Shown here in pieces: positions 1,485 through 17,087 of a DNA stretch of 23,893 nucleotides. Source of the DNA: Candidatus Nanohaloarchaea archaeon (lineage in GTDB: Archaea > Nanohalarchaeota > Nanosalinia > Nanosalinales > Nanosalinaceae); the NCBI GenBank assembly GCA_041640035.1, contig JBEQBC010000010.1, forward strand, positions 1-23,893, given 5' to 3'. How positions within the stretch are numbered: the stretch's first letter is position 1; each line of letters starts with the position of its first letter. The position numbers and the translations under genes are program-made. The notes under the pieces were generated by a model. The model was not told the origin of the DNA. It did no database searches and saw only the letters and a program-made list of their open reading frames with translations.

Positions 1485-1556
1485 GCGGTGTTGGTCCAGT
1501 GGCTACGACTCGTGCTTGCCATGCACGCGACCCGGGTTCAAATCCCGGACACCGCA
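1485..1556 (+). tRNA. tRNA-Gly (GCC)
   Basis: Acceptor stem GCGGTGT/ACACCGC with discriminator A; D-loop AGTGG; anticodon arm CGTGC-TTGCCAT-GCACG; T arm CCGGG-TTCAAAT-CCCGG. No intron, and CCA is not encoded. Confidence 0.97.
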
Positions 1557-1570
1557 CTTCAGGTTTCTAC

Positions 1571-2128
1571 CTAACTCAGTTTCTCATTCAGTAACTGGAA
1601 GGTTTCTGTAGCATCTTCTTCATCTATCACAAGGTGTGTGTCTTCCCGGCATGAGATCACTTCTGTCAAGTTGATTTCTCTACCTGCCAGTATCGAAAGA
1701 ACATAGGCAAGTACGCCAGGAGTTTTTTCCAGGCTGTTCGGGCTTTTCAGGGTTACAACTACCTGATCTTCAAGTGTTTCTCCGCGGCATTCCTCGGATG
1801 ATTTCATCACTGCTGTATATCCGTTTTCAGTCTTCGCGTATATCTCGGATTTCTCTTCTTCCTGTGTTTTACAGATTTTCATGTTGCTTTTCAGTTCTAC
1901 TGCTGTCTCTCCTAGAACCTCTGTGATGTTTGCCTGTCTCTTCTTTCTGCCTTTCTGGATTTCCTCTTTGTGCCGTCGCAAAGCCATTTTGACTGCTTCG
2001 AATCCTCCGGCGGTCTCTGGTTCTATTTTTCTGGCGAGAGCTGAGTAGTTTACGATTTCCTGTGAAAGCGCTTCCTGGATGTAAGGTCGCTTCTCCACAT
2101 AGTTCTCGACTTCTTCCTGTACAGACAT
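1571..2128 (-). CDS. ACT-domain protein with N-terminal HTH-like segment (putative amino-acid-sensing regulator, DUF7523-like)
   Basis: N-terminal EALSQEIVNYSALARKI...AVKMALRR and C-terminal ACT motif TPGVLAYVLSILAGREINLTEVISCREDTHLVI, both typical of this archaeal family. Confidence 0.85.
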   Translation of the reverse strand: MSVQEEVENYVEKRPYIQEALSQEIVNYSALARKIEPETAGGFEAVKMALRRHKEEIQKGRKKRQANITEVLGETAVELKSNMKICKTQEEEKSEIYAKTENGYTAVMKSSEECRGETLEDQVVVTLKSPNSLEKTPGVLAYVLSILAGREINLTEVISCREDTHLVIDEEDATETFQLLNEKLS

Positions 2129-2145
2129 ATATTTTACCTATTTGG

Positions 2146-2200
2146 AACAGAGTTTTTTATTTCTGTTATAGAAGTAACTGAATCTATAAATAGTGTTCAG
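2146..2200. promoter_or_regulatory. Divergent promoter region with inverted repeats around the AT-rich boxes
   Basis: AACAGA-N10-TCTGTT (2146-2167) brackets the minus-strand AT-rich box. CTGAA...TTCAG (2178-2200) brackets TATAAATA (2185-2192) on the plus strand. Confidence 0.55.
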
Positions 2201-2234
2201 AATAAAGAGTAGTAACACAAGGTGACACAATCAC

Positions 2235-2279
2235 ATGACAGACTCAACTTCAACACAAGGTGGACACGAAAGACTCTAA
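2235..2279 (+). CDS. Leader micro-ORF A, MTDSTSTQGGHERL (14 aa)
   Basis: ATG at 2235, preceded by archaeal SD GGTGA (2221-2225) at 9-nt spacing and downstream of the TATA box. TAA stop at 2277. Confidence 0.5.
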   Translation: MTDSTSTQGGHERL

Positions 2280-2316
2280 CCAAAACCTAGAACAGGGTGG
2301 ATACGAAAGGAACTGA
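2260..2316 (+). CDS. Leader micro-ORF B, (M/V)DTKDSNQNLEQGGYERN (18 aa)
   Basis: GTG at 2260 in the +1 frame relative to ORF A; TGA at 2314. It repeats the QGG[H/Y]ER C-terminus of ORF A and the VDTK N-terminus of the downstream gene. Confidence 0.35.
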   Translation: MDTKDSNQNLEQGGYERN

Positions 2317-2971
2317 GATAGAAGAAGTAACGATAGAAGCCGGACACGCATACCTCGAAAAACTGAAAAACGGCGAACAAATACCTCCGCCCAACCCGGA
2401 AACAGTTCAGGCTGCCCAAGAATTCCTCCACGACCATGGAGTAGAGACCAGCTTGATAGCCATACTGGACGATACCCACAGCTCAGTACAGGGAATAGAT
2501 GAGGGTCAGAAACAGGAGCTTGCCGAAGAGTACATTTCTACCTGGGAGATACAGCCGGACTCATATCACTGGGAGAGCGAAGCCATAGATGTCTGGAACC
2601 AGGAATGGAACCAGTACCTAGATCTGAACAATGCAGTAGATGAAGCAGATAGTAAATGGTGCAGCCTCACATGTGCCGCACTGGACGCAGCGATGACTGC
2701 TGAAAAACTCGGTATAACAGATCAAACCAGTATCCCATCCGCTGACGCAGCTGTAACCCAGCACGATGAGAACTATCCGCTTCCATCAGGATACAGCAGC
2801 TTCCATAACTATGACAACCAGGAGGAGTCACATCACCTGCAGCAGAACCTCTATGAGGACGGATTAATGCCGGTTCCTACTTTCCAGGATCAGTACAACC
2901 TGGAGTTCAACCCTGAACAGGTCAGTAACGGTGAGCTCGAGGAAGATCTCTATCAGGAGGTGATCTCATGA
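2297..2971 (+). CDS. Hypothetical protein, probable HUP/class I aminoacyl-tRNA-synthetase-like catalytic domain (SCO2522-like)
   Basis: Ordered motifs IEAGHAY, LIAILDD, DSYHWES and TCAALDAA..EKLG resemble the class I aaRS Rossmann core and the SCO2522 family as I recall it. No anticodon-binding domain. ATGA overlap with the next gene. The ORF is solid; the function is tentative. Confidence 0.6.
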   Translation: MDTKGTEIEEVTIEAGHAYLEKLKNGEQIPPPNPETVQAAQEFLHDHGVETSLIAILDDTHSSVQGIDEGQKQELAEEYISTWEIQPDSYHWESEAIDVWNQEWNQYLDLNNAVDEADSKWCSLTCAALDAAMTAEKLGITDQTSIPSADAAVTQHDENYPLPSGYSSFHNYDNQEESHHLQQNLYEDGLMPVPTFQDQYNLEFNPEQVSNGELEEDLYQEVIS

Positions 2972-3888
2972 AGGGCACTCTCGGTGAGGGCAGTACCCCA
3001 CTGGTGAAAAGCAGTGGGAAAGATCAGCTGTACTACAAGAACGAAGCCATAAACCCTACAGGGAGTTTCAAGGACCGTGGAACCGCGAAGATAGTTGATG
3101 AAGCACTGCAGCAAGGTGTTGAGAAACTGCATATCTGCTCGTCCGGAAACGCAGCACTATCTCTTTCAGTGTACTGCCAGAAAGCAGGTCTGGAATCTGT
3201 CTGCCATGTGCCGGAGTCAACTTCAGAAAGCAAGAAACAGTTGATGAAGGCGTTCGGCGCCACACTGAAACAGTACGATGCGATCTACGAGGAGATATTC
3301 CACGGCCTCGAGGAAAAGGACCTAGAGGGATGGAATGTAACGCCTGGCGCCTCGGATACCTCGCTAGAAGCTTACAAAGCTATTGCGGAGGAAATCCTGG
3401 ACTCGGGAATCGAGCCTGATCAGGTTGTGGTTCCGTGTGGGAACGGTACCAATCTGGCGGGTATCTGGAAAGGCTTCAAAGAGAATGGTGTTCATCCTGA
3501 GATGATCGGTGTCCAGATAGAAGGAGCCGCACCGATCAAGCAAGCGATTCAAAAGGAAAAACAACATGGAGTAGTTGGAAATCCTGGTAACAGCGTAGCT
3601 GAAGGCATCATCGCCTCTGAGTCATTCAACTGTGGAGAAGCAGTGAAGGCAATCCAGGAATCAAACGGCTCCCTTGAAACAGTTACGGAAGAACAAATCC
3701 AGAAGGGAATGAATGATCTGGTGGAAGATGGAATCATCTGTGAACCTACATCTGCAGTTGCCAAGCCTGTAGCGGACAAGTTCGTAGGCGAAACCGTCGC
3801 AGTGATCACAGGATCCGGTCTTAAATCCTATAGCAAGATCAAAGAAATGGTTCTTGAAACCCGAAATGAGATAGCTGTAGATACCTAG
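2968..3888 (+). CDS. thrC: Threonine synthase-family PLP-dependent enzyme (fold type II)
   Basis: LGEGSTPL, NPTGSFKDRG (PLP Lys), SSGNAA, VPCGNG, EPTSA and ITGSGLK motifs. Strong SD GGAGGTGA upstream and ATGA coupling. The true substrate is not established. Confidence 0.85.
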   Translation: MKGTLGEGSTPLVKSSGKDQLYYKNEAINPTGSFKDRGTAKIVDEALQQGVEKLHICSSGNAALSLSVYCQKAGLESVCHVPESTSESKKQLMKAFGATLKQYDAIYEEIFHGLEEKDLEGWNVTPGASDTSLEAYKAIAEEILDSGIEPDQVVVPCGNGTNLAGIWKGFKENGVHPEMIGVQIEGAAPIKQAIQKEKQHGVVGNPGNSVAEGIIASESFNCGEAVKAIQESNGSLETVTEEQIQKGMNDLVEDGIICEPTSAVAKPVADKFVGETVAVITGSGLKSYSKIKEMVLETRNEIAVDT

Positions 3889-3958: not shown

Positions 3959-4933
3959 ATGACGGGTTTGAGAGAAGTCGCTGAGGATAGAGGTCTTCGA
4001 ATAGGTACATGTGTTGATTACGATGTATGGAAAGAAGATAAGGATTATCGAGAACTGATTGCGGACGAGTTCAACTTGATAACCCCGGAAAGCTGCCTGA
4101 GCTGGAAATACATTCATCCGGAAGAAGAAAGATTTGATTTCGAGAAGCCTGACGCCCTGATTGATTTTGCTGAAGAAAACAGTATGGAGGTCACAGGAAT
4201 TCCCTTGGTATGGCATCTGGAGAACCCTGAATGGCTTGAAAACGGAGATTTCAACTCAGAAGAACTTGAAGACATACTGAAGAACCACATTAAAACGACT
4301 GTTGAAAGGTACTCTGGAAGAGTCGCGACCTGGAATGTAGTGAATGAGGCAGTCAACGATGACGGAGAACTGAGAGAAAACCTCTGGTTGCAGACGATCG
4401 GAGAAGATTATATCGAGAAAGCTTTCAGATGGACGGCCGAGTTTTCAGACGCAGATATTTTCTACAACGACTACGGACTTCCGTACGACGAAGAGAAAAG
4501 AGAGGCTGTATACCAGCTTCTATCCGACTTACTGGACAAAGATGTACCGATAGATGGAATCGGTTTACAGATGCATTTCATCGGCATAAAGGCTTCAACT
4601 GAGCAGATAGAAAAAACTATAAAGAAATTTCAAGAGCTCGGACTAGAGGTCAGGATGACAGAGATGGATATAGCCTATAGGAAGGAGGAAGCGCCGTCAA
4701 ACTTGAATCAGAGACAGGCAGAGTACTACCGAAAAGTATTCAGAACCTGCCTGGAAAATGATGTTACTAATCTCTCTGTTTGGGGTGTCAGAGATAATGA
4801 GTCGTGGATTAACTATTTCCGTGACTACGATGAGCAGTATACGGATAGTCCTTTGCTTTTCGATGAAGAAGGAGACAGGAAGAAATCTTACAGAGAAGTC
4901 AAAAAAGCCCTTGAAACAAAAATTAAAACCTGA
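3959..4933 (+). CDS. Glycoside hydrolase family 10 (endo-1,4-beta-xylanase-like)
   Basis: FNLITPE, LVWH, WNVVNEA (acid/base Glu), IFYNDY, IDGIGLQMH, MTEMDI (nucleophile Glu), VWGVRD and PLLFD. No signal peptide and no CBM. Confidence 0.93.
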   Translation: MTGLREVAEDRGLRIGTCVDYDVWKEDKDYRELIADEFNLITPESCLSWKYIHPEEERFDFEKPDALIDFAEENSMEVTGIPLVWHLENPEWLENGDFNSEELEDILKNHIKTTVERYSGRVATWNVVNEAVNDDGELRENLWLQTIGEDYIEKAFRWTAEFSDADIFYNDYGLPYDEEKREAVYQLLSDLLDKDVPIDGIGLQMHFIGIKASTEQIEKTIKKFQELGLEVRMTEMDIAYRKEEAPSNLNQRQAEYYRKVFRTCLENDVTNLSVWGVRDNESWINYFRDYDEQYTDSPLLFDEEGDRKKSYREVKKALETKIKT

Positions 4934-4954: not shown

Positions 4955-5431
4955 GTGAAAATAAGGTACGCAGAACAGGACGAGGCGGAAGAAATCTATG
5001 AAGTAGCCCTGAAAACCTGGAAGGACACCTACGGCCAGATCTTTTCCGAGGAAACAATCGAAAAGGTTATCAGTGACTGGTATGATGTAGAAGACCTGCG
5101 TCAACAGGTCGAACATCCGATATTCTATGTAGCAGAGGCAGGTGCTCAAGTTGTAGGCTTCGTGCATGCGAGTGTGGAGGATGGTGAGGCAACTCTTCAC
5201 AGGATATACCTTGATCCAGAGTATCAGGGAGAAGGCGTAGGGTCAAAGCTCTATGAAAAGGCGGAAAATGATATCAGGCAGAAAGCTGACATGATAGAAC
5301 TTGAAGTACTGGCAGAGAACGAAAAAGGCAAAGGTTTCTACCTCAAACAAGGATTTGAAGAACGGAAAGAAGAGGAAGTAGAACTGAAAGGAAAGAAGGC
5401 CAAACAGAAGATCATGGTAAAACACCTCTAG
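4955..5431 (+). CDS. GNAT family N-acetyltransferase
   Basis: LHRIYLDPEYQGEGVGSKL (acetyl-CoA motif A) and N..GKGFYLKQGF. Confidence 0.92.
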   Translation: MKIRYAEQDEAEEIYEVALKTWKDTYGQIFSEETIEKVISDWYDVEDLRQQVEHPIFYVAEAGAQVVGFVHASVEDGEATLHRIYLDPEYQGEGVGSKLYEKAENDIRQKADMIELEVLAENEKGKGFYLKQGFEERKEEEVELKGKKAKQKIMVKHL

Positions 5432-5831: not shown

Positions 5832-6200
5832 GTGAAGTATTCTTCCGGTGACGAAAATATCGGTGCTACAGGCAGGAGAAGGAGGAAGGCACTATCGATA
5901 GTTCTTTTCTCGGCTTTCATCTTCAATATAACTGCTTATCCAGGCCGACTTACTACTTTGACCGGGGCTTCCTCATCGGTTTTCCTTCTGTACGGTGCTT
6001 TCTACTGCTTCATCCAGTCAGAGCAGAAGTTCTGCGGAACATTCGGCTTTCTCGGCTTGAAGAAGACACCGGAAGGATTGAAGAAGATTCAGCAGAGATC
6101 TAACAGGTTGACAGATCTAAGCAAGTCGATGAGACAGAACATGTATTCACTAGGTGCTGCAGTATTTCTCTATCTCTGGGTTTTCGCTCTGGCTATCTGA
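5832..6200 (+). CDS. Small hypothetical membrane protein
   Basis: NIG..GRRRR followed by 2-3 hydrophobic segments and a QKFCGTFG motif. Confidence 0.65.
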   Translation: MKYSSGDENIGATGRRRRKALSIVLFSAFIFNITAYPGRLTTLTGASSSVFLLYGAFYCFIQSEQKFCGTFGFLGLKKTPEGLKKIQQRSNRLTDLSKSMRQNMYSLGAAVFLYLWVFALAI

Positions 6201-6201
6201 A

Positions 6202-6324
6202 CTACCAGAAAACCATTGAGATCCACGATATAATCGATACAAGTGATATCATAAGAAGAAGGCTTTTCTCATGTATACAAAGTCCTTCCTGTTTGATATT
6301 ACATCTTGAACATGTCGCTGCCAT
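6202..6324 (-). CDS. Uncalled 40-aa Cys/His-rich single-TM microprotein
   Basis: Manual translation gives MAATCSRCNIKQEGLCIHEKSLLLMISLVSIISWISMVFW*. It fills the intergenic gap exactly, starts 4 nt after the upstream stop and has GGAGG upstream. Confidence 0.55.
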   Translation of the reverse strand: MAATCSRCNIKQEGLCIHEKSLLLMISLVSIISWISMVFW

Positions 6325-6328
6325 ACAT

Positions 6329-7300
6329 TTATTCTCCTCCGATATCTTCAAAGATTTCCTCGATTTTCTTCTCAGCAACAGGCCCCATAGTATCCGTGAA
6401 CTTCTCTATCAACACTTTCTTCACTTCTTCAGGATCTTCGCCTGAAGCTGCGCCCTCAGCTGTATCTTCTTTTTCGAAAGCCTGGTTGAGTGCTTTCTTG
6501 GCCATCCTTTCAGCCAATTTCTTACCCATGATAGCTCCAAGATTCTCCACAGTCTCCGAAACAAGTCTCTGACTGGTATCCAAGCTATCCTCCTGGTCAT
6601 TTTCTGTATCCTCTTCATCAGTGCCTGTAGTCTGTACATCTCTGAATACTCCGTGGTAGAAAAGGTAAACGCTGTAACCCAGCATCAAAGTCCCTGAGAG
6701 CTCTATCGCTGGAGAGGAAACCAGTACATTGTGGACAATCCCGGTTTCCAGTGTCGGGATGTTCAGGCTGTGAATAAATTTGAATGCGTAAGAGGTCAGG
6801 TAAAGTATTGTTGCCGCTGTGAAAGAGTAGAATATTGATTCCTCTCCCTCAGTGGTTGCGCTCTGGAAAAGTATTACAGCAGGCTTCACGGCCAGGAAAC
6901 CAACCAGGTATAGAAGACTGGTGTAGTTGATAGCGTTGGAGATACCTGCTATCATCAGGAAAGCGAAGAGGAATGCCTCGTAAAACAGTATCTTAGACTT
7001 GAAACGCATCTTTACATCGTACTTCTCAACAAACCGTTCTGCTGAAAGCACGAAAAGTAGTCCTATCATCGGAGTTGAAAGCGCGTCAACAGCAAGAGAA
7101 AAAGTTTCCATCAGGTTGAATATGGAGGTTAAACCTATTACTCCTGCCAGAGCAGTTATCAGATTCCAGTTCAGGGATTCTACAGATTTGCTTATCCTGT
7201 AGGAGCTGTAAATTACAAGAAGCGTCACTAAGATTTCGAGAAAACTGAAAGCTATCTGCTCCTTCAAAACTGGTTCGACCCTTACACAATCACTGATCAC
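6329..7300 (-). CDS. About 7-TM membrane protein with acidic linker and small C-terminal helical domain
   Basis: Seven hydrophobic segments, a D/E-rich linker and a C-terminal domain with IMGKKLA / TMGPVAEK pseudo-repeat. GTG start. Confidence 0.75.
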   Translation of the reverse strand: MISDCVRVEPVLKEQIAFSFLEILVTLLVIYSSYRISKSVESLNWNLITALAGVIGLTSIFNLMETFSLAVDALSTPMIGLLFVLSAERFVEKYDVKMRFKSKILFYEAFLFAFLMIAGISNAINYTSLLYLVGFLAVKPAVILFQSATTEGEESIFYSFTAATILYLTSYAFKFIHSLNIPTLETGIVHNVLVSSPAIELSGTLMLGYSVYLFYHGVFRDVQTTGTDEEDTENDQEDSLDTSQRLVSETVENLGAIMGKKLAERMAKKALNQAFEKEDTAEGAASGEDPEEVKKVLIEKFTDTMGPVAEKKIEEIFEDIGGE

Positions 7301-7382
7301 TCCTCCATATTATTGTTTTCGCATAGAGGGTTGACATTTGATGGAAACTGTTTTGACATTTAACCACGCAAACTTTCACAGG

Positions 7383-8393
7383 ATGACCGAGCCAGGCAAC
7401 CAGATAATCGAAGATGCTCGAGTACTGACCGCGGACTACCTCCCGAACAACATGGTTCACAGAGATAGTGAGAGGCAGGAAATTGCTAGGAACCTGAAAC
7501 CGGTTCTACAGGAAGGACAACCGCTGAACATGCTTGTACATGGACCCCCGGGAACAGGGAAAACAGCTATGGCTCAGCATGTGGTAGAGGAGCTGAAGAA
7601 ACAGCAGTTCGTCAAGACACCGTATGTGAACTGTTTCAGTCAGAAAAGCAGGTTCGAAATATTCTACAAACTACTCAACAAGAGAGCTACAGTACCGCGT
7701 GACGGCACGAGCACAGAGAAAGTCATAGACATGTTTGAAGACGAGGCTAGAGAGAATCCTACTGTGATCACAATCGATGAAGTAGATCAGATAGCAGACG
7801 ATGACGCACTGTTCCAGATATCCCGTTTCCAGAAAGCAGGGCTGATACTTATAGCGAACAATCCGAACGCCTTGGCTAACTTTGATGAACGAGTTAGAAG
7901 TAGGCTTTCCGGACTAAAAAAGGTTCGTTTCCGTAGATACGATAAGGATGAACTATTTGATATTCTTAAGCAGCGGAGGAAGTATGGGATGTACCCTGAC
8001 TCGGTATCGGATGACAAACTGCATTCAATAGCAGCCGCTTCTAACGGAGATGCGAGGATGGCGTTGAACAGTCTGCGTATAGCAGCTCAGGATGCTGAGA
8101 ACCGTGGCCTGGATAAGATCACTGAGGATATAGTTGAACAGAGTATAGATGACTCGCAGGACAGGGACAGGATTGAGTCCTTGGAACGGTTGAACCGTCA
8201 TCAGAAAGAGGTTTACAGTATTTTACAGGAGGAGGACGGGCTTCAGATGAGCGATCTGTACAGCAGGTACAGCTCCAGCGTTGAGGACCAGAAGACCAAG
8301 AGAACTCTGCGCCGCTACCTGAACAAGATGGAAGCGTACGAACTGATCTCTTCTGAAGGAAGCAAGAGCGGTAAGACCTACAGGCTTGAGTAA
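7383..8393 (+). CDS. cdc6: Cdc6/Orc1 family replication initiator AAA+ ATPase
   Basis: IEDARVL..YLP...HRD N-terminus, Walker A GPPGTGKT, Walker B ITIDEVD, RVRSRL, GDAR and a C-terminal winged helix. ATG at 7383 is preferred over TTG at 7338. Confidence 0.93.
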   Translation: MTEPGNQIIEDARVLTADYLPNNMVHRDSERQEIARNLKPVLQEGQPLNMLVHGPPGTGKTAMAQHVVEELKKQQFVKTPYVNCFSQKSRFEIFYKLLNKRATVPRDGTSTEKVIDMFEDEARENPTVITIDEVDQIADDDALFQISRFQKAGLILIANNPNALANFDERVRSRLSGLKKVRFRRYDKDELFDILKQRRKYGMYPDSVSDDKLHSIAAASNGDARMALNSLRIAAQDAENRGLDKITEDIVEQSIDDSQDRDRIESLERLNRHQKEVYSILQEEDGLQMSDLYSRYSSSVEDQKTKRTLRRYLNKMEAYELISSEGSKSGKTYRLE

Positions 8394-8442
8394 ACGATTT
8401 GAGAACGGTTTTAACATTTCATAACTAAACCTGTAACTGTCC

Positions 8443-8871
8443 ATGAAGGAAAGATACGCCGATCATTTTCTGGATATGATTCAGGACGACCGGCTGAAAT
8501 ATGAAACATTCAAGGATAATATTAGCACGGTTCCAGACGCTTTTCAGGAATCGGTTTCCCGTGAAATGGATCTTAACCAGTTAACTGAGATGATAAATAA
8601 TCTCGATCAGCCTGACTACCGTGTAGATCAGGCAGAGGTGGAGATAACCGCTGATACCTATGATTCTCTTGGTATAATTGAATCAGACAGGCGAACGCTG
8701 TCGGGTACGAAGCTTTACCGAGCTCCGAACTACAACGGCAGAGGTGCCAGCACTTCATGGAACGAGATAGTAACTGAACTGAGTGAAGCAGCCTTGGAAG
8801 CTGAAAAACAGATGATGAGAATAGAGAAAAGAGAAAGAGCGGACCAGACTGAGATCCAGGACTTCCACTAA
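8443..8871 (+). CDS. Hypothetical protein
   Basis: 142-aa acidic ORF with ATG start, convergent with the SDR gene (4-nt overlap). Confidence 0.65.
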   Translation: MKERYADHFLDMIQDDRLKYETFKDNISTVPDAFQESVSREMDLNQLTEMINNLDQPDYRVDQAEVEITADTYDSLGIIESDRRTLSGTKLYRAPNYNGRGASTSWNEIVTELSEAALEAEKQMMRIEKRERADQTEIQDFH

Positions 8872-9593
8872 TGGCTGGTCCAGCCACCGTCGACAGGAAT
8901 GTTCGCACCTGTGATGTAGGATGCTTCGTCTGATGCCAGGAAAGCAGCTACCGATGAGATCTCTTCAGGCTCGGCCATCCTCTCCAGCGGAGTCATGTTT
9001 TCTATATGTGCCTGGAATTCCTCTCCCAATCCTTCTGTCATAGGTGTCTCAACGAATCCAGGGCAGATGCTGTTTACTCTTACATTATGTTCAGCTAGGT
9101 CGTTAGCGACGCTTCTCGTCATGTTGACAACTCCTCCTTTCGCTATATTGTATGCTGTTGATCCTTTATCTCCGACCAGGCCGTAGATTGAGGCCATGTT
9201 GATTATGACTCCTTCAGTCTCTTTCAGATGCGGTGCTGCTGCCTTGCATCCGTAGGTGACGCCGTCAAGGTTGATACTTCTGATCTGTTTGTAATCTTCT
9301 ACATCCATGTCTTCTATTCCCTCAACAGCTCCGATACCGGCGTTGTTAACTATTATATCTAGTTTTCCGTGTCTTTCAACGGTTTCCTCAACCAGGTTTT
9401 CTACCTCTTCCCATTCTGAGACATCGCACTGTATGAAGTCGGAGTCTGTTTCCTCCGCGACTTCCTGTCCTTTCTCTTCATCTACATCGGCGACTACGAC
9501 TTCTGCGCCTTCCCATGCGTATCTTTCTACTATAGCTTTTCCGATTCCGCTTGAACCACCTGTTACGATTGCAACTTTTCCTTCGAGATCCAT
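8868..9593 (-). CDS. Short-chain dehydrogenase/reductase (classical SDR, probably NAD-preferring)
   Basis: TGGSSGIG, acidic ADVD at the end of beta2, NNAG, catalytic S...YNIAK, and VDGG. Confidence 0.95.
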   Translation of the reverse strand: MDLEGKVAIVTGGSSGIGKAIVERYAWEGAEVVVADVDEEKGQEVAEETDSDFIQCDVSEWEEVENLVEETVERHGKLDIIVNNAGIGAVEGIEDMDVEDYKQIRSINLDGVTYGCKAAAPHLKETEGVIINMASIYGLVGDKGSTAYNIAKGGVVNMTRSVANDLAEHNVRVNSICPGFVETPMTEGLGEEFQAHIENMTPLERMAEPEEISSVAAFLASDEASYITGANIPVDGGWTSH

Positions 9594-9732
9594 AGAGTGT
9601 TATTCACCTTCGAACTATGTAAAATTTACAGGTTTCACTGAATAAAAACCGGGCTGGTACAAAACTCCAAAAACCGGTGCTTTGTAGTCAAGGGGTAAAG
9701 TTAGTTAAGCATGAAACCAGCAAACTTTGATA

Positions 9733-10761
9733 GTGAGGATTGTACATACAGCGGATGTCCATCTTTCTCAGGACCATCCTGAAAGACTGGAAGCACTGAA
9801 ACAGATACTGAAGACATGTGAAGACGAAGATGTAGACATACTTCTAATCGCTGGAGATCTCTTCGACGACAATGTAGATGTAGAAACACTGAAAACAGAT
9901 CTAAGACCATTATTCAAAGACAACAGCTTCCAAACCTATGTGATACCAGGAAACCACGACAACACAGCTTTCAGAAAAGAAGACTACTTCGGGGAAGACA
10001 TACAGATACTGACAGAAAGCCCTTACGAAATCAAAGAGTTCGATGACCTCCGCCTGATCGCCTTACCCTACACAGAGAAAAACTTCTCCGAAATCATGGA
10101 CGAACTACCGGAACCAGGTACAAAGACAGACATCATGATGATGCACTGCACACTCTCAGGAACCACAGGAGGATTCGGAGAAGAAGAAAAATACATGCCA
10201 GTCAAACCAGCACAGATAATCCAGACCGGCTACGACTACATACTAGCAGGACACATACACTCCTCAGCAACCAGAAAAACATTCGGAGACACCACATTCG
10301 CATACTCAGGCTCACCAGTATCAATATCAAGCAGCGAAACAGGAAGAAGAGCAGTATGGATACTCGATACCGAAAAAGAGGAAATGAAAGCCCAGCAACT
10401 AGACACAGAGTACTTTATACAACGCAGAATCGAACTCATGCCAGGAAATGAAGACGAAGAACGGGACACCCTTATATCGAATTTGAGTGATAGAGAGCTG
10501 GACAAAGCAAACATCCAGATCGAGCTCGCCGGTTTCACAGAAAAAGAACTGGAACAAATTAAAGAAGATTTCAGAGATGAAATAAAAGATCTAGAGCCTC
10601 TTTCACTGGATATAGGTTCAGATCAGCTCCAGTCCGCAGCATCAATAGTAAAAACCGATATCTACAGTGAATTCGAAGACAAGCTAGAGGAAAAAGAGTT
10701 TGAAAACCCGGAAGCCGTGAAAAGAAAGTTTTTGAGAGGTCTCTCAAGATATGAGCGATAA
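9733..10761 (+). CDS. Mre11/SbcD/YhaO-like metallophosphoesterase DNA nuclease
   Basis: HTADVH, AGDLFD, PGNHD, MHC, AGHIH and YSGSP motifs. GTG at 9733 is the likely start (track gives TTG 9727). Overlaps the next gene. Confidence 0.92.
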   Translation: MRIVHTADVHLSQDHPERLEALKQILKTCEDEDVDILLIAGDLFDDNVDVETLKTDLRPLFKDNSFQTYVIPGNHDNTAFRKEDYFGEDIQILTESPYEIKEFDDLRLIALPYTEKNFSEIMDELPEPGTKTDIMMMHCTLSGTTGGFGEEEKYMPVKPAQIIQTGYDYILAGHIHSSATRKTFGDTTFAYSGSPVSISSSETGRRAVWILDTEKEEMKAQQLDTEYFIQRRIELMPGNEDEERDTLISNLSDRELDKANIQIELAGFTEKELEQIKEDFRDEIKDLEPLSLDIGSDQLQSAASIVKTDIYSEFEDKLEEKEFENPEAVKRKFLRGLSRYER

Positions 10762-12724
10762 CACATGGATTAAAAGAATCAAAGTAGATCACTACGGCCC
10801 ATTGGGAGACATAGATGTAGAACTTGATGAGGGAATGAATGTATTCTACGGAAAAAACGAGTCAGGGAAAACTCTGCTTGTCGAAGCGGTTACCAAGATG
10901 CTTCTGGACGACAGCTCTTCCTTCGCAGATATCGGCCGTGTATCTCAGGATCCTGCCGGGATGCTTCTGATGGAAACAGGTGGAGAGGAACTTGAGGTCT
11001 CTCAGGAAGACTTGAATACAGTTTTCCAAGATGTTACTGCCAGCGATGTAAGAAACTCATTCCTGATCAGAGACTTCGATCTGAGGCTGCCGGAAAGACA
11101 GAACGACTTCGGTAAAGGAAACTACTTCAACGATGTAACCGACAGAGTCCTCGGATCCAAAACCAACAAGATCCAGGGTGTTAGAGAGGAGATAGCGGAC
11201 TTCAGCTACCTCACAAACAGCACACCAAGCTCCAAGATCGAGAACCGGAAATCAACAGGCCATCTCAGAAAGAAAAAAGAAGAAGCAGAAGGACTGAAAG
11301 ATGAGATCGAAGAAGCAATCGCCGAGATACGGGAAGAAGGCTTGGTTGAAAAGTACTCCGAGATCGAAACACTTCAGAAACAGGTAGAGAAAGATAAAAA
11401 CCGGATCGAGACACTGGAAAACGCCAGAAAACAGCAGAAATACCAACAAGGCAAGGAAATTATATCAAAGGTCCGTGAGATAGAGGACGACCTGGAAGAA
11501 CTGAGAGAGGAAGAAGAGAAGCTTGATCAGGCCCGTGAACTGAAGCAGAGAGCAGAATCATTTGAACCCGTCAAGATCTCAGGATACAGCTTCTTCCGGA
11601 AAGCATCGATTGCAACCACAGTGACCACATTAATCGGTCTGGTAGCAACGATAATCACAAGCAACCCAATACCAGCAGCGGTAGCAGGACTCGCTTTCCT
11701 AGTCTCCATTTACACAGGTTACAGGTACTTCAAAACCAGGAAAGAGATGGAAGAATCCGATATGAAGAAAGAAAAGATACTTGAACAGGCAGAAGCCAAA
11801 GGACTGGAAGCAGAGAACCTTGCCGATGTAACAGAGGAATTTAAGGACTGGAGAGAAAGCATAGATAGCCGGAAGAACGAACTGAAAGAGGAACGAGGAG
11901 AACTAGCCGGTACCTTCCGTGCAGAGTTCAACACGGATGCAGAGGATCTGGAGAAATGGAAGAAAATCCTGGATGAATTCTCGGAAAGCTTTGAAACAGT
12001 GGAAGAGGATTACAGCGAGGGAGATATCGAAGAACTGGAAGCAGATTTGAATGAGAATCAGGATGAGCTTGAGCAGCTTGAAGACGATATCAGCAGGTTC
12101 GATAGCCGTTTCAACGACTTTGATTCTCGGCTCTCTACAGTGCTCAGACTAGAGTTCCTTGAGGACGAACCGGTAAGTGTAGAGGTTTTCGAGGACCTAG
12201 AAGAAGCAGAAAGACAGCTTCAGGAGTTCCTAGATAACATTGAGGAGATGAAGAAGAGTTCACATGAAGCCTTGGAGATACTGGTCGAGATGGAGGAAGA
12301 AGAGGAGGACGAGTTCAACAGGATTTTCAGTGACGGAAGCTACGCTGTAGAGATGTTCAAGGAAGCTACAGACGGTAACTATACCGATATAAATTACGAT
12401 AAGGATGAGAGAGTTCTGAAAGTGGAGAGAAGCGATGGAACTGTTCTTACACCTGATCAACTCAGTCAGGGGACATATGACCTGCTGTACATGGCGGTAA
12501 GGCTGAAACTGGCCAGAGAGATACTTGGAGAACCAGGTTTCCTTATACTGGATACCGCTTTCGTGCATTCAGATATTGACAGGGTTCAGAAAGAGCTTGA
12601 GTTCCTGCAGAAACTGGAGGATGACGGCTGGCAGATAATCTACTTCACCTTTAGGGACGATGTAAAGGAACAGCTAGAGGAATTAACAACTGTAAGAGAG
12701 CTTGAAGATCTCGAGTTCGAGTAA
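10751..12724 (+). CDS. Rad50/SbcC/YhaN-like SMC-type ABC ATPase with central transmembrane hairpin
   Basis: Walker A GKNESGKT, long coiled coils, signature LSQGT, Walker B region LILDTAFVHSD and YFTFR. Two hydrophobic helices at about aa 285-327; no CxxC zinc hook. Confidence 0.9.
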   Translation: MSDNTWIKRIKVDHYGPLGDIDVELDEGMNVFYGKNESGKTLLVEAVTKMLLDDSSSFADIGRVSQDPAGMLLMETGGEELEVSQEDLNTVFQDVTASDVRNSFLIRDFDLRLPERQNDFGKGNYFNDVTDRVLGSKTNKIQGVREEIADFSYLTNSTPSSKIENRKSTGHLRKKKEEAEGLKDEIEEAIAEIREEGLVEKYSEIETLQKQVEKDKNRIETLENARKQQKYQQGKEIISKVREIEDDLEELREEEEKLDQARELKQRAESFEPVKISGYSFFRKASIATTVTTLIGLVATIITSNPIPAAVAGLAFLVSIYTGYRYFKTRKEMEESDMKKEKILEQAEAKGLEAENLADVTEEFKDWRESIDSRKNELKEERGELAGTFRAEFNTDAEDLEKWKKILDEFSESFETVEEDYSEGDIEELEADLNENQDELEQLEDDISRFDSRFNDFDSRLSTVLRLEFLEDEPVSVEVFEDLEEAERQLQEFLDNIEEMKKSSHEALEILVEMEEEEEDEFNRIFSDGSYAVEMFKEATDGNYTDINYDKDERVLKVERSDGTVLTPDQLSQGTYDLLYMAVRLKLAREILGEPGFLILDTAFVHSDIDRVQKELEFLQKLEDDGWQIIYFTFRDDVKEQLEELTTVRELEDLEFE

Positions 12725-12752
12725 AAAATAATTTGGAAGATGAGAGGAAAGC

Positions 12753-13007
12753 CTATTCCTCTTCATCATCTTCTTCCATAAAATGCTGGCACGCCTTATG
12801 GCTGAAACGCTTGAAATAACCGAACGAAACCGTAAAGGAAATCGCTGAAGCAGCTACAAGCGTACCTGCGACCAGGTAAGCCATGAAAGTAGTAACCGGA
12901 CCACACTGGCAGTAACTGTAAGACATGAGAGCTACAAGAGACTTGTAGGCCTCCATACCTACCAGAAACATGATCCCAGATACTACAATATCCTTCTCCT
13001 TGCTCAT
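12753..13007 (-). CDS. Small hypothetical membrane protein
   Basis: 84 aa with two hydrophobic stretches, a CQC loop motif and an acidic tail. GGAG upstream. Confidence 0.6.
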   Translation of the reverse strand: MSKEKDIVVSGIMFLVGMEAYKSLVALMSYSYCQCGPVTTFMAYLVAGTLVAASAISFTVSFGYFKRFSHKACQHFMEEDDEEE

Positions 13008-13080
13008 AACCCTGAATTATAGCTCCTCCTTATTATAACATCAAGATAACTTCGCAGTAATTGAAATCAGAAAAAAGGAG

Positions 13081-13797
13081 TTATTCGAACTCGTCGTCTT
13101 CAGGTTCAAGCATATCCTCTCTGAGCTCTTGCTCTTCTTCAGGGGTCAAAGGTTCTTCCTCCATTTCAACCTCACCTGTCTGAGGGTTCACTCTGCCTGC
13201 TCCGACAATGACTTTAGGCTGTCTGACCTCTACATCTTCGTCGTCATCGTACTCGAAAGCCATCTCCTGGAACTCTGCGTCATCAACCAGGTTCAGTTCG
13301 TAGTCTTCCTCTGCTACAGCTCCAAAGTCGTAACTCCGACCTACTTTTGACTTCACTGCTCTTCTGACAACTCCTTCAACAGCTTGTTTTGCTCCGTTAG
13401 TAATGGATTCAGCGAACATCGCGGTGCTGAACATAGAACCGAAGACCCAGAAAGGTTCTCCTCCTGATTCTATCGCCATGTATCCTGTTCCGGCTGGTAA
13501 GGCTGTGAGTCCGGCGGTGTACGCTGCGGCTTTACCCGCATCTTTCAAACCGTTGTTCATGTGTTCTGCAGATCTGTCTGCTTCTGGAATCCTTGATTCT
13601 CTTATGTTGAGCTCTCTTTCATTGTGATCTACGATTGTTCCTTCTCCCAGTAGGTTGACGGCCTCGAACTTACCGTAGTCCTCAGCGACATCTTTCTGTG
13701 TATAGTCTCCTTCTTCGATACTTTCCACGATACCGTCGTATACCTCTAGGTCATCCATATCGTAGGCTGCTCCGCCGTTCATCACACCAGGTCTCAT
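13081..13797 (-). CDS. Hypothetical acidic protein with central hydrophobic hairpin
   Basis: 238 aa with SD GGTGA upstream of the ATG and Gly/Ala-rich hydrophobic segments mid-protein. Confidence 0.75.
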   Translation of the reverse strand: MRPGVMNGGAAYDMDDLEVYDGIVESIEEGDYTQKDVAEDYGKFEAVNLLGEGTIVDHNERELNIRESRIPEADRSAEHMNNGLKDAGKAAAYTAGLTALPAGTGYMAIESGGEPFWVFGSMFSTAMFAESITNGAKQAVEGVVRRAVKSKVGRSYDFGAVAEEDYELNLVDDAEFQEMAFEYDDDEDVEVRQPKVIVGAGRVNPQTGEVEMEEEPLTPEEEQELREDMLEPEDDEFE

Positions 13798-13885
13798 GTG
13801 TTCACCTTTGAATCCTAAAAATTATATTTGGTGGTGGTGGTCAACTGGGAAGTTCTTATGAAACTCCCTCGCTAACACTGTAAAC

Positions 13886-14554
13886 ATGGGAGTTATCGAC
13901 ACTTTGAAGAGCAGCTTCATATCTGGCCTGGTTCTGGCTTTACCTGTACTGATAACTCTCTTCATAGTAAGAACAATATCCGGATGGGCATTCAAAGTAG
14001 TTAATCCGATAGTCCAGGGAACCAACCTAGTAAAGTACACAGGAAATATAGAGATAATAGCACAATTGCTGGCACTTATAACTGCTGTTGCATTCCTGAC
14101 ACTACTCGGTTATCTTTCCAACTACCAGTTAAGCAACCAGATAAGAAGCACAGCAGCCAAGATGGTAAAGGAAATTCCTTTGTTTGGATCCGTATATGTA
14201 ACGGTCAAGCAGATAACCTCCACATTCCAGGACGGAGGCGACAAGTTCGAGAAAACAGTACTAGTAGAATTTCCACGAAACGAGGTCTACTCGCTTGGAT
14301 TGATAACATCTGAATCACCTAAATCGGTTGAAGAAGCCGTAGCGGACGGAGAGGAAATGAAATCAGTGTTCGTACCGATGAGCCCTAACCCTACGATGGG
14401 AAGACTGATAATGGTAGAACCAGAGAACTACACCGAATTAGATATGTCCGTACAGCGCGCAATGAAACTCCTGCTCACAACAGGAATCGCCTACAGCGAA
14501 GAAGAACTACCTGACGAAATAATAGACGCTGCAAAAACCAAGTACGGCACATAA
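13886..14554 (+). CDS. DUF502 family membrane protein
   Basis: FISGL..LP..IT, IPLFGSVY..VKQI, VLVEFPR and VFVPMSPNPTMG motifs. Confidence 0.92.
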   Translation: MGVIDTLKSSFISGLVLALPVLITLFIVRTISGWAFKVVNPIVQGTNLVKYTGNIEIIAQLLALITAVAFLTLLGYLSNYQLSNQIRSTAAKMVKEIPLFGSVYVTVKQITSTFQDGGDKFEKTVLVEFPRNEVYSLGLITSESPKSVEEAVADGEEMKSVFVPMSPNPTMGRLIMVEPENYTELDMSVQRAMKLLLTTGIAYSEEELPDEIIDAAKTKYGT

Positions 14555-15283: not shown

Positions 15284-15868
15284 TTATCTTTCTCTTTTCT
15301 CTGCGTACTTCGCCATTATATCGGCTTCCAGGTTCACTTTTTCACCAATCTCTTTCTCTGATAGATTTGTGGCATTCCAGGTCTCGGGAATAATCGTGAC
15401 TGTGAAGCTTTCCTCATCTATTTCGGCTACTGTCAGGCTGATACCTTCTACTGCGATGAACCCTTTCTGAACGATGTATTGATTGATCTCTTCAGGTATT
15501 GAAAATCTTATGTTCCAGCCTTCTTCCAATTCTTCGATCTCCAGTACCTCTGCTGTTGTATCTACATGTCCCTGGACATAATGTCCGCCCATCTTGTCGG
15601 TCGGTGTAAGTGAGTCCTCGATATTCAGTTTATCTCCTTCAACTAGTTCGCTGAACCAAGTCTTCTCGATTGTTTCCTTGGCTAGGAAGAATATAACGCC
15701 GTTATCCTTGAATTCTTCAATGGTCAGACAAGCTCCGGATACCGAGATACTAGCTCCGACCTCGTTATCATCAAAAACTTCATGGTTGTCTAAAAGTACT
15801 CTGCGGCCTTCTCCAGCCTCTTCTATATTTTTGACTTCTACGGTATCCTCGACCAGTCCTGTAAACAT
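15284..15868 (-). CDS. ribE: Riboflavin synthase (bacterial/alpha-chain type)
   Basis: N-terminal MFTG, GASISVSGACLT, GGHYVQGHVD, GFIAVEGISLTV, IPET and VNLEAD. Confidence 0.95.
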   Translation of the reverse strand: MFTGLVEDTVEVKNIEEAGEGRRVLLDNHEVFDDNEVGASISVSGACLTIEEFKDNGVIFFLAKETIEKTWFSELVEGDKLNIEDSLTPTDKMGGHYVQGHVDTTAEVLEIEELEEGWNIRFSIPEEINQYIVQKGFIAVEGISLTVAEIDEESFTVTIIPETWNATNLSEKEIGEKVNLEADIMAKYAEKRER

Positions 15869-15908
15869 ACTCTAGAATAATGTTTGACACAGTTATAAAC
15901 CGGGATAA

Positions 15909-16289
15909 TTACTTGGTGGTGACCTTCACAGTGTCTCCATCCTCAAGTTCGAGCTCTCCACGCAGGTATTCTGCTGCGATTATCTCCATAACATCTTCGC
16001 CGTGATCGGTTACCTCTATATCCAGGTAGGCTGCCTTAACACCGTCAATTTCAACCGTGTAGACCTCTACCCTGCTGTACTCATCTCCCTGGAATTCAAA
16101 GGTTTCTATAACCTCCGGTTCATGGGTCTCCTTCAGTTCTTTCAGTTTCTCCTCGCTCACTTTGAGGTTCAGAGTACCTTCAAACGGATAGTAACCTGTG
16201 ATATCCTTCAATTTCTCCTGGTAGGGCTTCATTCCTATGTAGTCAGCGCCTTCACCCAGTCCTGTGAAAACTTCTCCCTCTAACTCCAT
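15909..16289 (-). CDS. ribK: CTP-dependent riboflavin kinase (archaeal type, no HTH fusion)
   Basis: GEVFTGLGEG..Y, YPFEGTLNL and EIIA...LR..L.LEDGD.V motifs. Confidence 0.92.
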   Translation of the reverse strand: MELEGEVFTGLGEGADYIGMKPYQEKLKDITGYYPFEGTLNLKVSEEKLKELKETHEPEVIETFEFQGDEYSRVEVYTVEIDGVKAAYLDIEVTDHGEDVMEIIAAEYLRGELELEDGDTVKVTTK

Positions 16290-16316
16290 AACCTGTCACT
16301 TGGTGGTACAGTGTTA

Positions 16317-17087
16317 TCAATCCAGCAGTCCATCGATGGTCTCCGTCGCATTCTCCGAGAAACTTCTGGCCCAGTAAACATCATCCGAGAACCTGATCTC
16401 TCCGGATTCCATGTACTGATCCAGGTAGGATGCGGCCATGACTGATAGCGCTGCTCCTTCTTCATGCTCGAAGACTTCTCCGTCGTCATGCTCCAGGCCA
16501 AGGTTGTGTCCTATCTCGTGTATACCTGCTACCACGGTCTTGAAGGGAGAGTAGTTGATCTCGTATCCCAGTTCTTCAAGCTCGTACTCGCCTACAAGTA
16601 CTTCCTGAAAATCTTCGTCCCTATCGATATCCAGGAAGTCGTATCCCTCTCCCAGTACTGATACAGTAGCTTCCGTCGGATTGTTCGTTCTCTCTGCAAC
16701 ACCTACCGAGTCATGATACTTCCTGTCAGTCAGCAGAAGTGATGCAGCGTTTCCATCCTCAATAGTTCTCCGCCACCGCTTTAATGTACTCTCAGCTGCT
16801 TCCTCGTCGAGGGAAGGTTCAAGTTCCGGTCTGTAGTTGACTTTGATGGAGTCGATATCTGTTGAGTCAATCAGCGGTTTCAGTGCTTCGGCTGCGAATC
16901 CTTGTAGTATCTGAGCCGGGTATCCGCGGTTATCATGGACTAGTTGAGCTCTGTCTGCGAGTTCCTCAGTCTGGTAAATATCTACTTCCAAGTCTACACT
17001 GTCTTGTTTGGTTATAGCTGTTCCGAGAACTGTGGCTGTGGATGCAGCTATGAACTGTCTTCTCGTCAAACCCTTGTTCTCAGCCAC
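16317..17087 (-). CDS. Metzincin-type zinc metallopeptidase with twin-arginine (Tat)-like N-terminal signal
   Basis: HEIGHNLGLEH with a downstream Met-turn SVM. LTRRQFIAASTATVLG lies close to GTG 17087, the probable start; the longer track ORF overlaps the divergent gene. Confidence 0.8.
   Translation of the reverse strand: MAENKGLTRRQFIAASTATVLGTAITKQDSVDLEVDIYQTEELADRAQLVHDNRGYPAQILQGFAAEALKPLIDSTDIDSIKVNYRPELEPSLDEEAAESTLKRWRRTIEDGNAASLLLTDRKYHDSVGVAERTNNPTEATVSVLGEGYDFLDIDRDEDFQEVLVGEYELEELGYEINYSPFKTVVAGIHEIGHNLGLEHDDGEVFEHEEGAALSVMAASYLDQYMESGEIRFSDDVYWARSFSENATETIDGLLD

Follow-up and report, generated by a model that had tools for sequence, protein, structure and literature searches.

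The stretch analysed here, hereafter the window, comprises positions 1 to 23,893 of contig JBEQBC010000010.1 (GenBank assembly GCA_041640035.1, Candidatus Nanohaloarchaea archaeon); its G+C content is about 46%, its encoded proteins are acidic, and haloarchaeal domains of unknown function (DUFs) are present among them; together with archaeal replication, repair and riboflavin genes, these features mark the source as a halophilic archaeon. At 1571-3888 the window carries two overlapping genes, one encoding a 224-residue protein that resembles the catalytic core of a class I aminoacyl-tRNA synthetase (aaRS) and the other a pyridoxal 5'-phosphate (PLP) enzyme apparently derived from threonine synthase (ThrC), next to a divergently transcribed gene for a candidate regulator. 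The features of the locus are as follows (aa, amino acids; nt, nucleotides; ORF, open reading frame).

1571-2128, minus strand: ACT/DUF7523 protein, 185 aa (ORF call and Pfam)
2129-2296, no strand: divergent spacer of 168 nt between the ACT gene and the aaRS-like gene (sequence)
2297-2971, plus strand: aaRS-like protein, 224 aa, with a GTG start (ORF call; nothing in Pfam)
2968-2971, plus strand: ATGA stop/start overlap of the aaRS-like and PLP ORFs, predicted to couple their translation (sequence)
2968-3888, plus strand: PLP enzyme, 306 aa (PALP match)

A sequence-only reading made earlier had given these gene coordinates, the ATGA coupling, the divergent ACT gene and a series of motifs in the aaRS-like translation, and all of them are present in the sequence, the motifs being IEAGHAY at residues 13-19, ILDD at 56-59, DSYHWES at 88-94 and TCAALDAAMTAEKLG at 125-139. 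The same reading had stated that no hom, thrB, ask or asd gene is in the window, and a Pfam scan agrees: the 25 ORF products scanned include no homoserine dehydrogenase, GHMP kinase, aspartate kinase or aspartate-semialdehyde dehydrogenase, and no aaRS gene is found within the 23.9 kb.

Family and predicted fold of the aaRS-like protein

The aaRS-like protein has an isoelectric point (pI) of 4.05, with 6 Lys and no Arg in its 224 aa. It has no match in Pfam, NCBIfam, PADLOC or PHROGs, and the same holds for its homologues P0022, P0021 and P0025. Because 18 homologues are found at 46-90% identity and 61 columns are invariant in the alignment of the resulting 19 sequences, the ORF is evidently a real gene. 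A profile search of 1,835,955,588 representative proteins recovered only 11 clusters at E<=1e-3, and a word-indexed search seeded with distant members added four further homologues. Ten of the 11 clusters are acidic (pI 4.05-4.57), the exception being P0025 with a pI of 6.42. A fused or split gene was considered and excluded, every one of the 11 clusters being 223-282 aa long with no fused or longer forms, and a defence-system reading was dropped after PADLOC found nothing. In a tblastn search of plasmids, both window proteins and P0022 gave no match. A scan of genome contigs with patterns from the close-family alignment matched 93 stretches, none of which was confirmed, and a scan with the distant-member alignment yielded one locus, here called L001; both scans are blind to P0019-like and P0020-like variants, whose motifs deviate from the patterns used. 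The ESM Atlas gave no usable match for the window protein and only sub-threshold leads for P0022 (0.77 and 0.75), and PDB sequences, searched with the family profile by hmmsearch, yielded a single chance match (E=3.1). Taken together, these searches place the aaRS-like protein in a tiny, previously unnamed orphan family. The sequence-only reading had also noted a resemblance to the actinobacterial SCO2522 family; a family of only 11 clusters, 10 of them acidic, argues against a link to a large family of actinobacteria.

An alignment of 29 sequences, reaching down to 24% identity, leaves 13 invariant columns: E14, H17, D58, D59, T60, Y79, E93, K120, C126, A128, D130, K137 and S178. H156 is largely conserved, being replaced by Tyr in 2 of the 29 members. 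The canonical HIGH motif is missing: residues 14-17 read E-x-[GSAC]-H, with E14 and H17 invariant and a Glu in place of the first His. Likewise, the family has no anticodon-binding domain, its members being 223-282 aa long and without any aaRS match in Pfam or NCBIfam.

To describe the fold we relied on structure prediction for two members. For the window protein, modelled from 19 sequences, the best predicted local distance difference test score (pLDDT) was 80, with the other four models at 54-69; in a Foldseek search with this model, class I aaRSs accounted for nine of the first 11 matches, none of them at E<=1e-3. The model of P0022, which is 27% identical to the window protein and was modelled from 25 sequences, reached a pLDDT of 95.2 and a predicted template modelling score of 0.92; the pLDDT values of its five models all lie at 94-95. 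Searching the PDB with it by Foldseek gave 12 matches at E<=1e-3, namely five CysRS, four ArgRS, one GluRS and two MshC structures, so that the class I aaRS or HUP fold proposed earlier is borne out by 12 of 12 significant matches. Below this set follow MetRS and further aaRSs, and the first listed protein that is not an aaRS appears at rank 40 with a probability of 0.11.

The P0022 model shows a five-stranded parallel Rossmann sheet (strands 6-14, 45-52, 88-91, 187-191 and 228-231). Between strands 3 and 4, the place that the CP domain occupies in class I enzymes, a beta region (121-148) is inserted; the subfamily of the window protein has a version of it that is shorter by about 40 residues. 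The invariant residues map to the C-terminal ends of strands 1-3 and to the beginning of the helix preceding strand 4, a location that corresponds to the usual active-site edge of such a sheet. As judged from these models, the family has the predicted fold of a class I aaRS catalytic core and not just a generic Rossmann fold. The invariant DDT stands at the end of strand 2, where class Ia enzymes anchor the alpha-amino group. H17 and E14 (end of strand 1), C126 (where the helix preceding strand 4 begins) and H156 (after strand 4), and also D130, presumably follow the topological order of the zinc ligands of CysRS and MshC; this equivalence is by order only, and it places H17, C126, D130 and H156 at positions topologically comparable to the Cys/Cys/His/Glu metal ligands of those enzymes.

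The closest known structures are those of CysRS and MshC, which give the best matches of the P0022 model (3sp1, 5.7e-5; 1li7, 8.2e-5; MshC 3c8z and 8hfm, both <1e-3). MshC, the Cys:GlcN-Ins ligase, is aaRS-like, as is the family described here, and works outside translation; the family, however, is about half the size of MshC and lacks KMSKS, a canonical HIGH and any detectable sequence similarity to either enzyme. ArgRS supplies four of the 12 significant matches (3fnr, 1iq0, 6ao8 and 5yym), and in L001 the gene immediately upstream of the pair is an argS, whereas the family has neither the N-terminal nor the DALR domain of ArgRS.

The PLP enzyme, the second locus and the divergent gene

The product of the downstream gene matches PALP (PF00291) with 199.2 bits and carries, in an SFKDRG motif, the PLP Schiff-base lysine K35, which is invariant in its clade. 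ThrC models are its best-scoring ones, yet all remain under their cut-offs (TIGR00260, 105.7 against 167.1; PRK05638, 166.2 against 421; PRK06381, 141.3 against 266), and the orthologue in L001 also falls below the ThrC cut-offs. The clade comprises 20 clusters of 52-100% identity and 295-315 aa; the next match is 43% identical, and most others are 355-390 aa long. In a FastTree phylogeny of the 120 listed PLP matches, the 20 members split off on a branch of length 0.51 with a Shimodaira-Hasegawa-like support value of 100.

The clade profile scores best against solved ThrCs (6cgq, 6.5e-40; 2zsj, 4.3e-39), and the fold-type II PLP domain is common to the clade, to ThrC and to the ThrC-derived enzymes MetM and cysteate synthase. 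Compared with the solved ThrCs, the clade is shorter (295-315 against 351-360 aa) and has invariant motifs of its own: STGNT, VNSVNPxR[IL]EGQKT and ATAI[RK]IGNP, present in 4 of 4 solved ThrCs, are replaced by SSGNAAL, GWNVTPG...AY and AEGIIASES, respectively, with the core residues of the replacements invariant in 20 of 20 members. Moreover, the clade gains two invariant glutamates, E212 and E218. The Arg, Thr and Asn lost from the ThrC motifs reportedly bind the substrate phosphate in the Thermus thermophilus enzyme. Since these presumed phosphate-binding residues are lost and two invariant Glu are gained, we infer that the substrate carries no phosphate leaving group but possibly a cationic one. 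Scores, motifs and tree position thus agree with the earlier suggestion that the enzyme is not an ordinary threonine synthase, and on the strength of its sequence we assign it to a separate, ThrC-derived clade. For MetM, passages of a recent preprint (10.1101/2024.10.14.618325) describe a ThrC homologue that catalyses another reaction and is misannotated as ThrC.

The pairing of the two genes is conserved in the one other locus examined. L001, a 16.7-kb stretch from a contig of a 67%-GC metagenome-assembled genome of an uncultured archaeon, contains both, in the order argS (608 aa), a 24-nt gap, the P0022 gene, an 8-nt overlap and the PLP gene; the PLP proteins of the two loci are 54% identical, compared with 27% for the aaRS-like proteins. 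Of the 25 proteins encoded in the window, L001 has homologues of just three: the ACT/DUF7523, aaRS-like and PLP proteins. In five further homologue pairs, the longest contigs are equally long for both proteins (69605, 311720, 13692, 2504 and 28285), in line with the conserved pairing with a thrC-like gene that had been expected from the window. The module appears limited to halophile-like archaea, that is, archaea with acidic proteomes. A search of the available literature found no description of an aaRS-like/ThrC-like pair, and in a 2022 review of aaRS paralogues (PMC9437257) the term ArgRS is absent from the main text.

The divergent gene encodes a 185-aa protein whose N-terminal, helix-turn-helix-like part matches DUF7523 with 42.3 bits (cut-off 27) and whose C-terminus reaches 25.4 bits with ACT_7, below the cut-off of 27. 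Its L001 orthologue (15976-16536, 59% identical) lies 6.3 kb downstream of the PLP gene; it also exceeds the DUF7523 cut-off and reaches 26.2 bits with ACT_7. The ACT gene that the sequence-only reading had linked to the pair therefore recurs near it, though at a distance: ACT, aaRS-like and PLP genes occur together in both of the two loci, and in L001 the ACT gene is not adjacent. The 185-aa protein is a candidate amino-acid-sensing regulator. The divergent spacer and the adjoining gene start hold three copies of a repeat, AACA..GGTG(G)AYAC, spaced 38-40 nt apart (at 2214, 2252 and 2292; span 2214-2309). The third copy spans the GTG start of the aaRS-like gene; the second (2255-2272) matches the start context of that gene at 16 of 18 bases and begins an upstream ORF of 18 codons, out of frame, whose end lies past the real GTG start. 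These repeats may possibly be operator sites, or they may provide an upstream decoy start. A scan for sigma-70 promoters and terminators, which is unsuited to archaea, found no more sites than in shuffled sequences. On the other side of the ACT/DUF7523 gene, a tRNA-Gly(GCC) gene (1485-1557, plus strand) ends 13 nt short of its 3' end.

Arginine signals and proposed function

Both proteins of the pair are strikingly poor in arginine, a feature that was not part of the sequence-only reading. The pair contains 2 Arg in 530 residues, compared with a mean of 4.7% in the 23 other window proteins (Poisson P = 2e-9; with 2 of the 34 basic residues being Arg, binomial P = 3e-7), and the two proteins have the two lowest Arg values of all 25. 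Both arginines belong to the PLP enzyme (2 in 306 residues), and one of them is the invariant Arg of SFKDRG. The closer orthologues are mostly K-rich and R-poor as well: 14 of the 20 closer aaRS-like homologues (P0001-P0020) have no Arg, and 11 of the closest PLP homologues (P0034-P0044) have 1-4 Arg and 22-36 Lys. In L001, the pair is flanked by two full argS genes (6150-7976 and 9643-11724), which are 50% identical to each other and both above the argS cut-off, and beside these stand argH, argG and a distant ADI-superfamily gene. The L001 argG product (12722-13960) has 1.7% Arg and 5.8% Lys, while the proteins around it contain 4.0-9.7% Arg and, for the most part, 1-3% Lys. Biosynthetic enzymes tend to spare the amino acid that they produce, and the Arg-poverty of the L001 ArgG possibly fits this tendency. 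Because arg genes surround the L001 pair and both window proteins are depleted of Arg, the substrate or signal of the module may be related to arginine; we hold this view tentatively, as somewhat short of probable. The arginine signals are circumstantial, and the setting to which they point is arginine limitation or exposure to arginine analogues.

How might the two proteins work? We consider it about evenly balanced that they form a coupled module in which an aaRS-like core and a ThrC-derived PLP enzyme handle the same amino acid. The invariant residues of the aaRS-like protein would form an acidic, possibly metal-binding pocket, in which an amino acid would be bound as in the class I pocket. 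The PLP partner would carry out a beta- or gamma-elimination or replacement on a substrate other than O-phosphohomoserine, probably with a neutral or cationic leaving group, and the aaRS-like protein would most likely either contribute to catalysis or confer specificity, working on the same amino acid as its partner and perhaps complexed with it. ATP-dependent activation of a carboxyl group by the aaRS-like protein, in the manner of MshC, lies on the unlikely side, and the ATP-dependent amide-bond formation proposed earlier finds no support, the protein lacking KMSKS and retaining no more of HIGH than E-x-G-H. The leader-peptide scaffold and the osmolyte or host-interaction product suggested in the sequence-only reading find no support either.

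As to the substrate, an arginine-linked amino-acid transformation is our leading guess for the pair. A fuller version, an arginine-stress module, is improbable as a whole. According to it, a ThrC-derived enzyme whose phosphate pocket has been swapped for an acidic one (E212, E218) would act together with the minimal aaRS core. It would perform a gamma- or beta-elimination or replacement, and its substrate would be a cationic amino acid with a substituent on O or N; the substrate might be an arginine precursor, analogue or antimetabolite, for instance of the canavanine or ureido-homoserine type, and the minimal class I core would bind or activate that cationic compound. Proteins nearly free of Arg could be translated even under a shortage or mischarging of Arg-tRNA, and in some genomes the pair would travel with an ArgRS paralogue of its own.

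Several observations weigh against the module as we read it. The Foldseek matches of the P0022 model have query-normalised TM-scores of only 0.40-0.52 with large root mean square deviations, and the HIGH and zinc-site equivalences follow from topological order alone. No sequence similarity of the family to any aaRS was detected with Pfam, NCBIfam, the PDB profile search or hhalign, the last of which gave a probability of 0.2, that is, no similarity, against both L001 ArgRSs. KMSKS is missing: K137 is the last Lys or Arg of the window protein, and the family has no conserved basic position after strand 5. Regarding arginine, the high-GC orthologues are not depleted (P0022 has 16 Arg in 250 aa, P0051 17 Arg in 298 aa), and no arg genes are present in the window. 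Lastly, gene context has been read in two loci only, the window and L001; a member of the PLP clade from Natronobacterium gregoryi (P0045, 65% identical) resides on a 3.79-Mb replicon.

Some of the same features suit other explanations, in which the aaRS-like protein has a different part. It may have lost adenylation and serve as a ligand-sensing regulatory or scaffold subunit of the PLP enzyme, as HisZ does for HisG. The lack of KMSKS and the degenerate HIGH are compatible with this, and translational coupling and co-distribution would fit a stoichiometric complex; HisZ itself, according to PMC9437257, is a documented non-adenylating regulatory aaRS paralogue that has no aminoacylation activity and partners an enzyme of an amino-acid pathway. 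However, HisZ is a bacterial class II protein and its partner is a phosphoribosyltransferase, not a PLP enzyme. The 13 invariant residues of the family are mostly charged or nucleophilic, among them a Cys, a His, five acidic residues and two Lys. They gather along the catalytic edge of the sheet, an arrangement that resembles catalysis or metal binding more than effector binding alone, and a separate ACT protein already provides a sensor, so that we regard a HisZ-like role as rather unlikely. The family could instead use aminoacyl-tRNA, as cyclodipeptide synthases (CDPSs) do, taking for instance Arg-tRNA from the adjacent ArgRS paralogue of L001 and passing the aminoacyl group on by way of a covalent intermediate on Cys, Ser or Thr. 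CDPSs such as AlbC and Rv2275 likewise stand alone, are about 240 aa long, resemble the class I aaRS core and lack both HIGH and KMSKS, and they use aminoacyl-tRNA by way of an acyl-serine, with a Ser-to-Cys variant being partly active (passages of PMC3105412). The family does have invariant C126, T60 and S178, and in L001 the pair is preceded, at a distance of 24 nt, by a full argS that scores 410 bits (cut-off 261.65). Nevertheless, a protein with 6 Lys, no Arg and a pI of 4.05 offers a poor surface for tRNA, and the window contains no aaRS gene. CDPSs resemble the class Ic enzymes TyrRS and TrpRS, whereas the family resembles CysRS, ArgRS and GluRS; its best Foldseek matches are class Ia/Ib, not Ic, and no CDPS is among the matches listed. 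A CDPS-like activity is accordingly very improbable in our view.

Less probable still is an ordinary threonine pathway, with a working ThrC and an upstream protein that either replaces homoserine kinase non-orthologously or is unrelated. ThrC is indeed the best-scoring family of the PLP enzyme, and thrB-thrC operons are common; HUP enzymes, on the other hand, normally adenylate and do not phosphorylate. All ThrC equivalog models stay below cut-off, the three ThrC motifs are replaced throughout the clade, and 11 clusters in 1.8 billion proteins are far too few for a core pathway. That thrB can be missing is documented, the GapMind analysis in passages of 10.1101/2024.10.14.618325 reporting 16 prototroph genomes (8%) without it and suspecting other kinases. 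The last explanation, that the two genes are chance neighbours of unrelated function, gains from the restriction of the context to two loci, and it is hardly credible given that the overlap is retained at 27% and 54% identity of the two proteins, that both families are similarly rare and that the longest contigs of their members are equally long.

With each of the stand-alone aaRS-like proteins, such as MshC, CDPS, HisZ, AsnA and GluQRS, new chemistry has come to light. To our knowledge, no other such family is genetically locked to a PLP enzyme. Returning to the coupled module that we prefer, its aaRS-like member would represent a new, sequence-orphan core of class Ia/Ib type, and at about 224 aa it would be among the smallest natural class I cores. 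The pair is thus relevant to how minimal aaRS cores bind their substrates, to the 'threonine synthases' that are misannotated in haloarchaea and, if the arginine link is true, to the ways in which halophiles deal with a shortage of arginine or with its analogues.

The surroundings of the locus are varied. Directly 3' of the PLP gene lies a gene for a GH10 endo-xylanase (3959-4933; Pfam, 304 bits), followed by one for a GNAT acetyltransferase (4955-5431). Near the beginning of the window, an acidic 409-aa ORF (189-1418) contains a HELGH motif of the HExxH, metalloprotease-like kind and has no match in Pfam, NCBIfam or PHROGs. Farther downstream, the segments 7338-12724 and 15284-16289 encode Orc1/Cdc6, an Mre11-like phosphoesterase overlapping a Rad50-like ATPase, and riboflavin synthase adjoining a CTP-dependent riboflavin kinase, a set of genes that belongs to the usual archaeal housekeeping repertoire.

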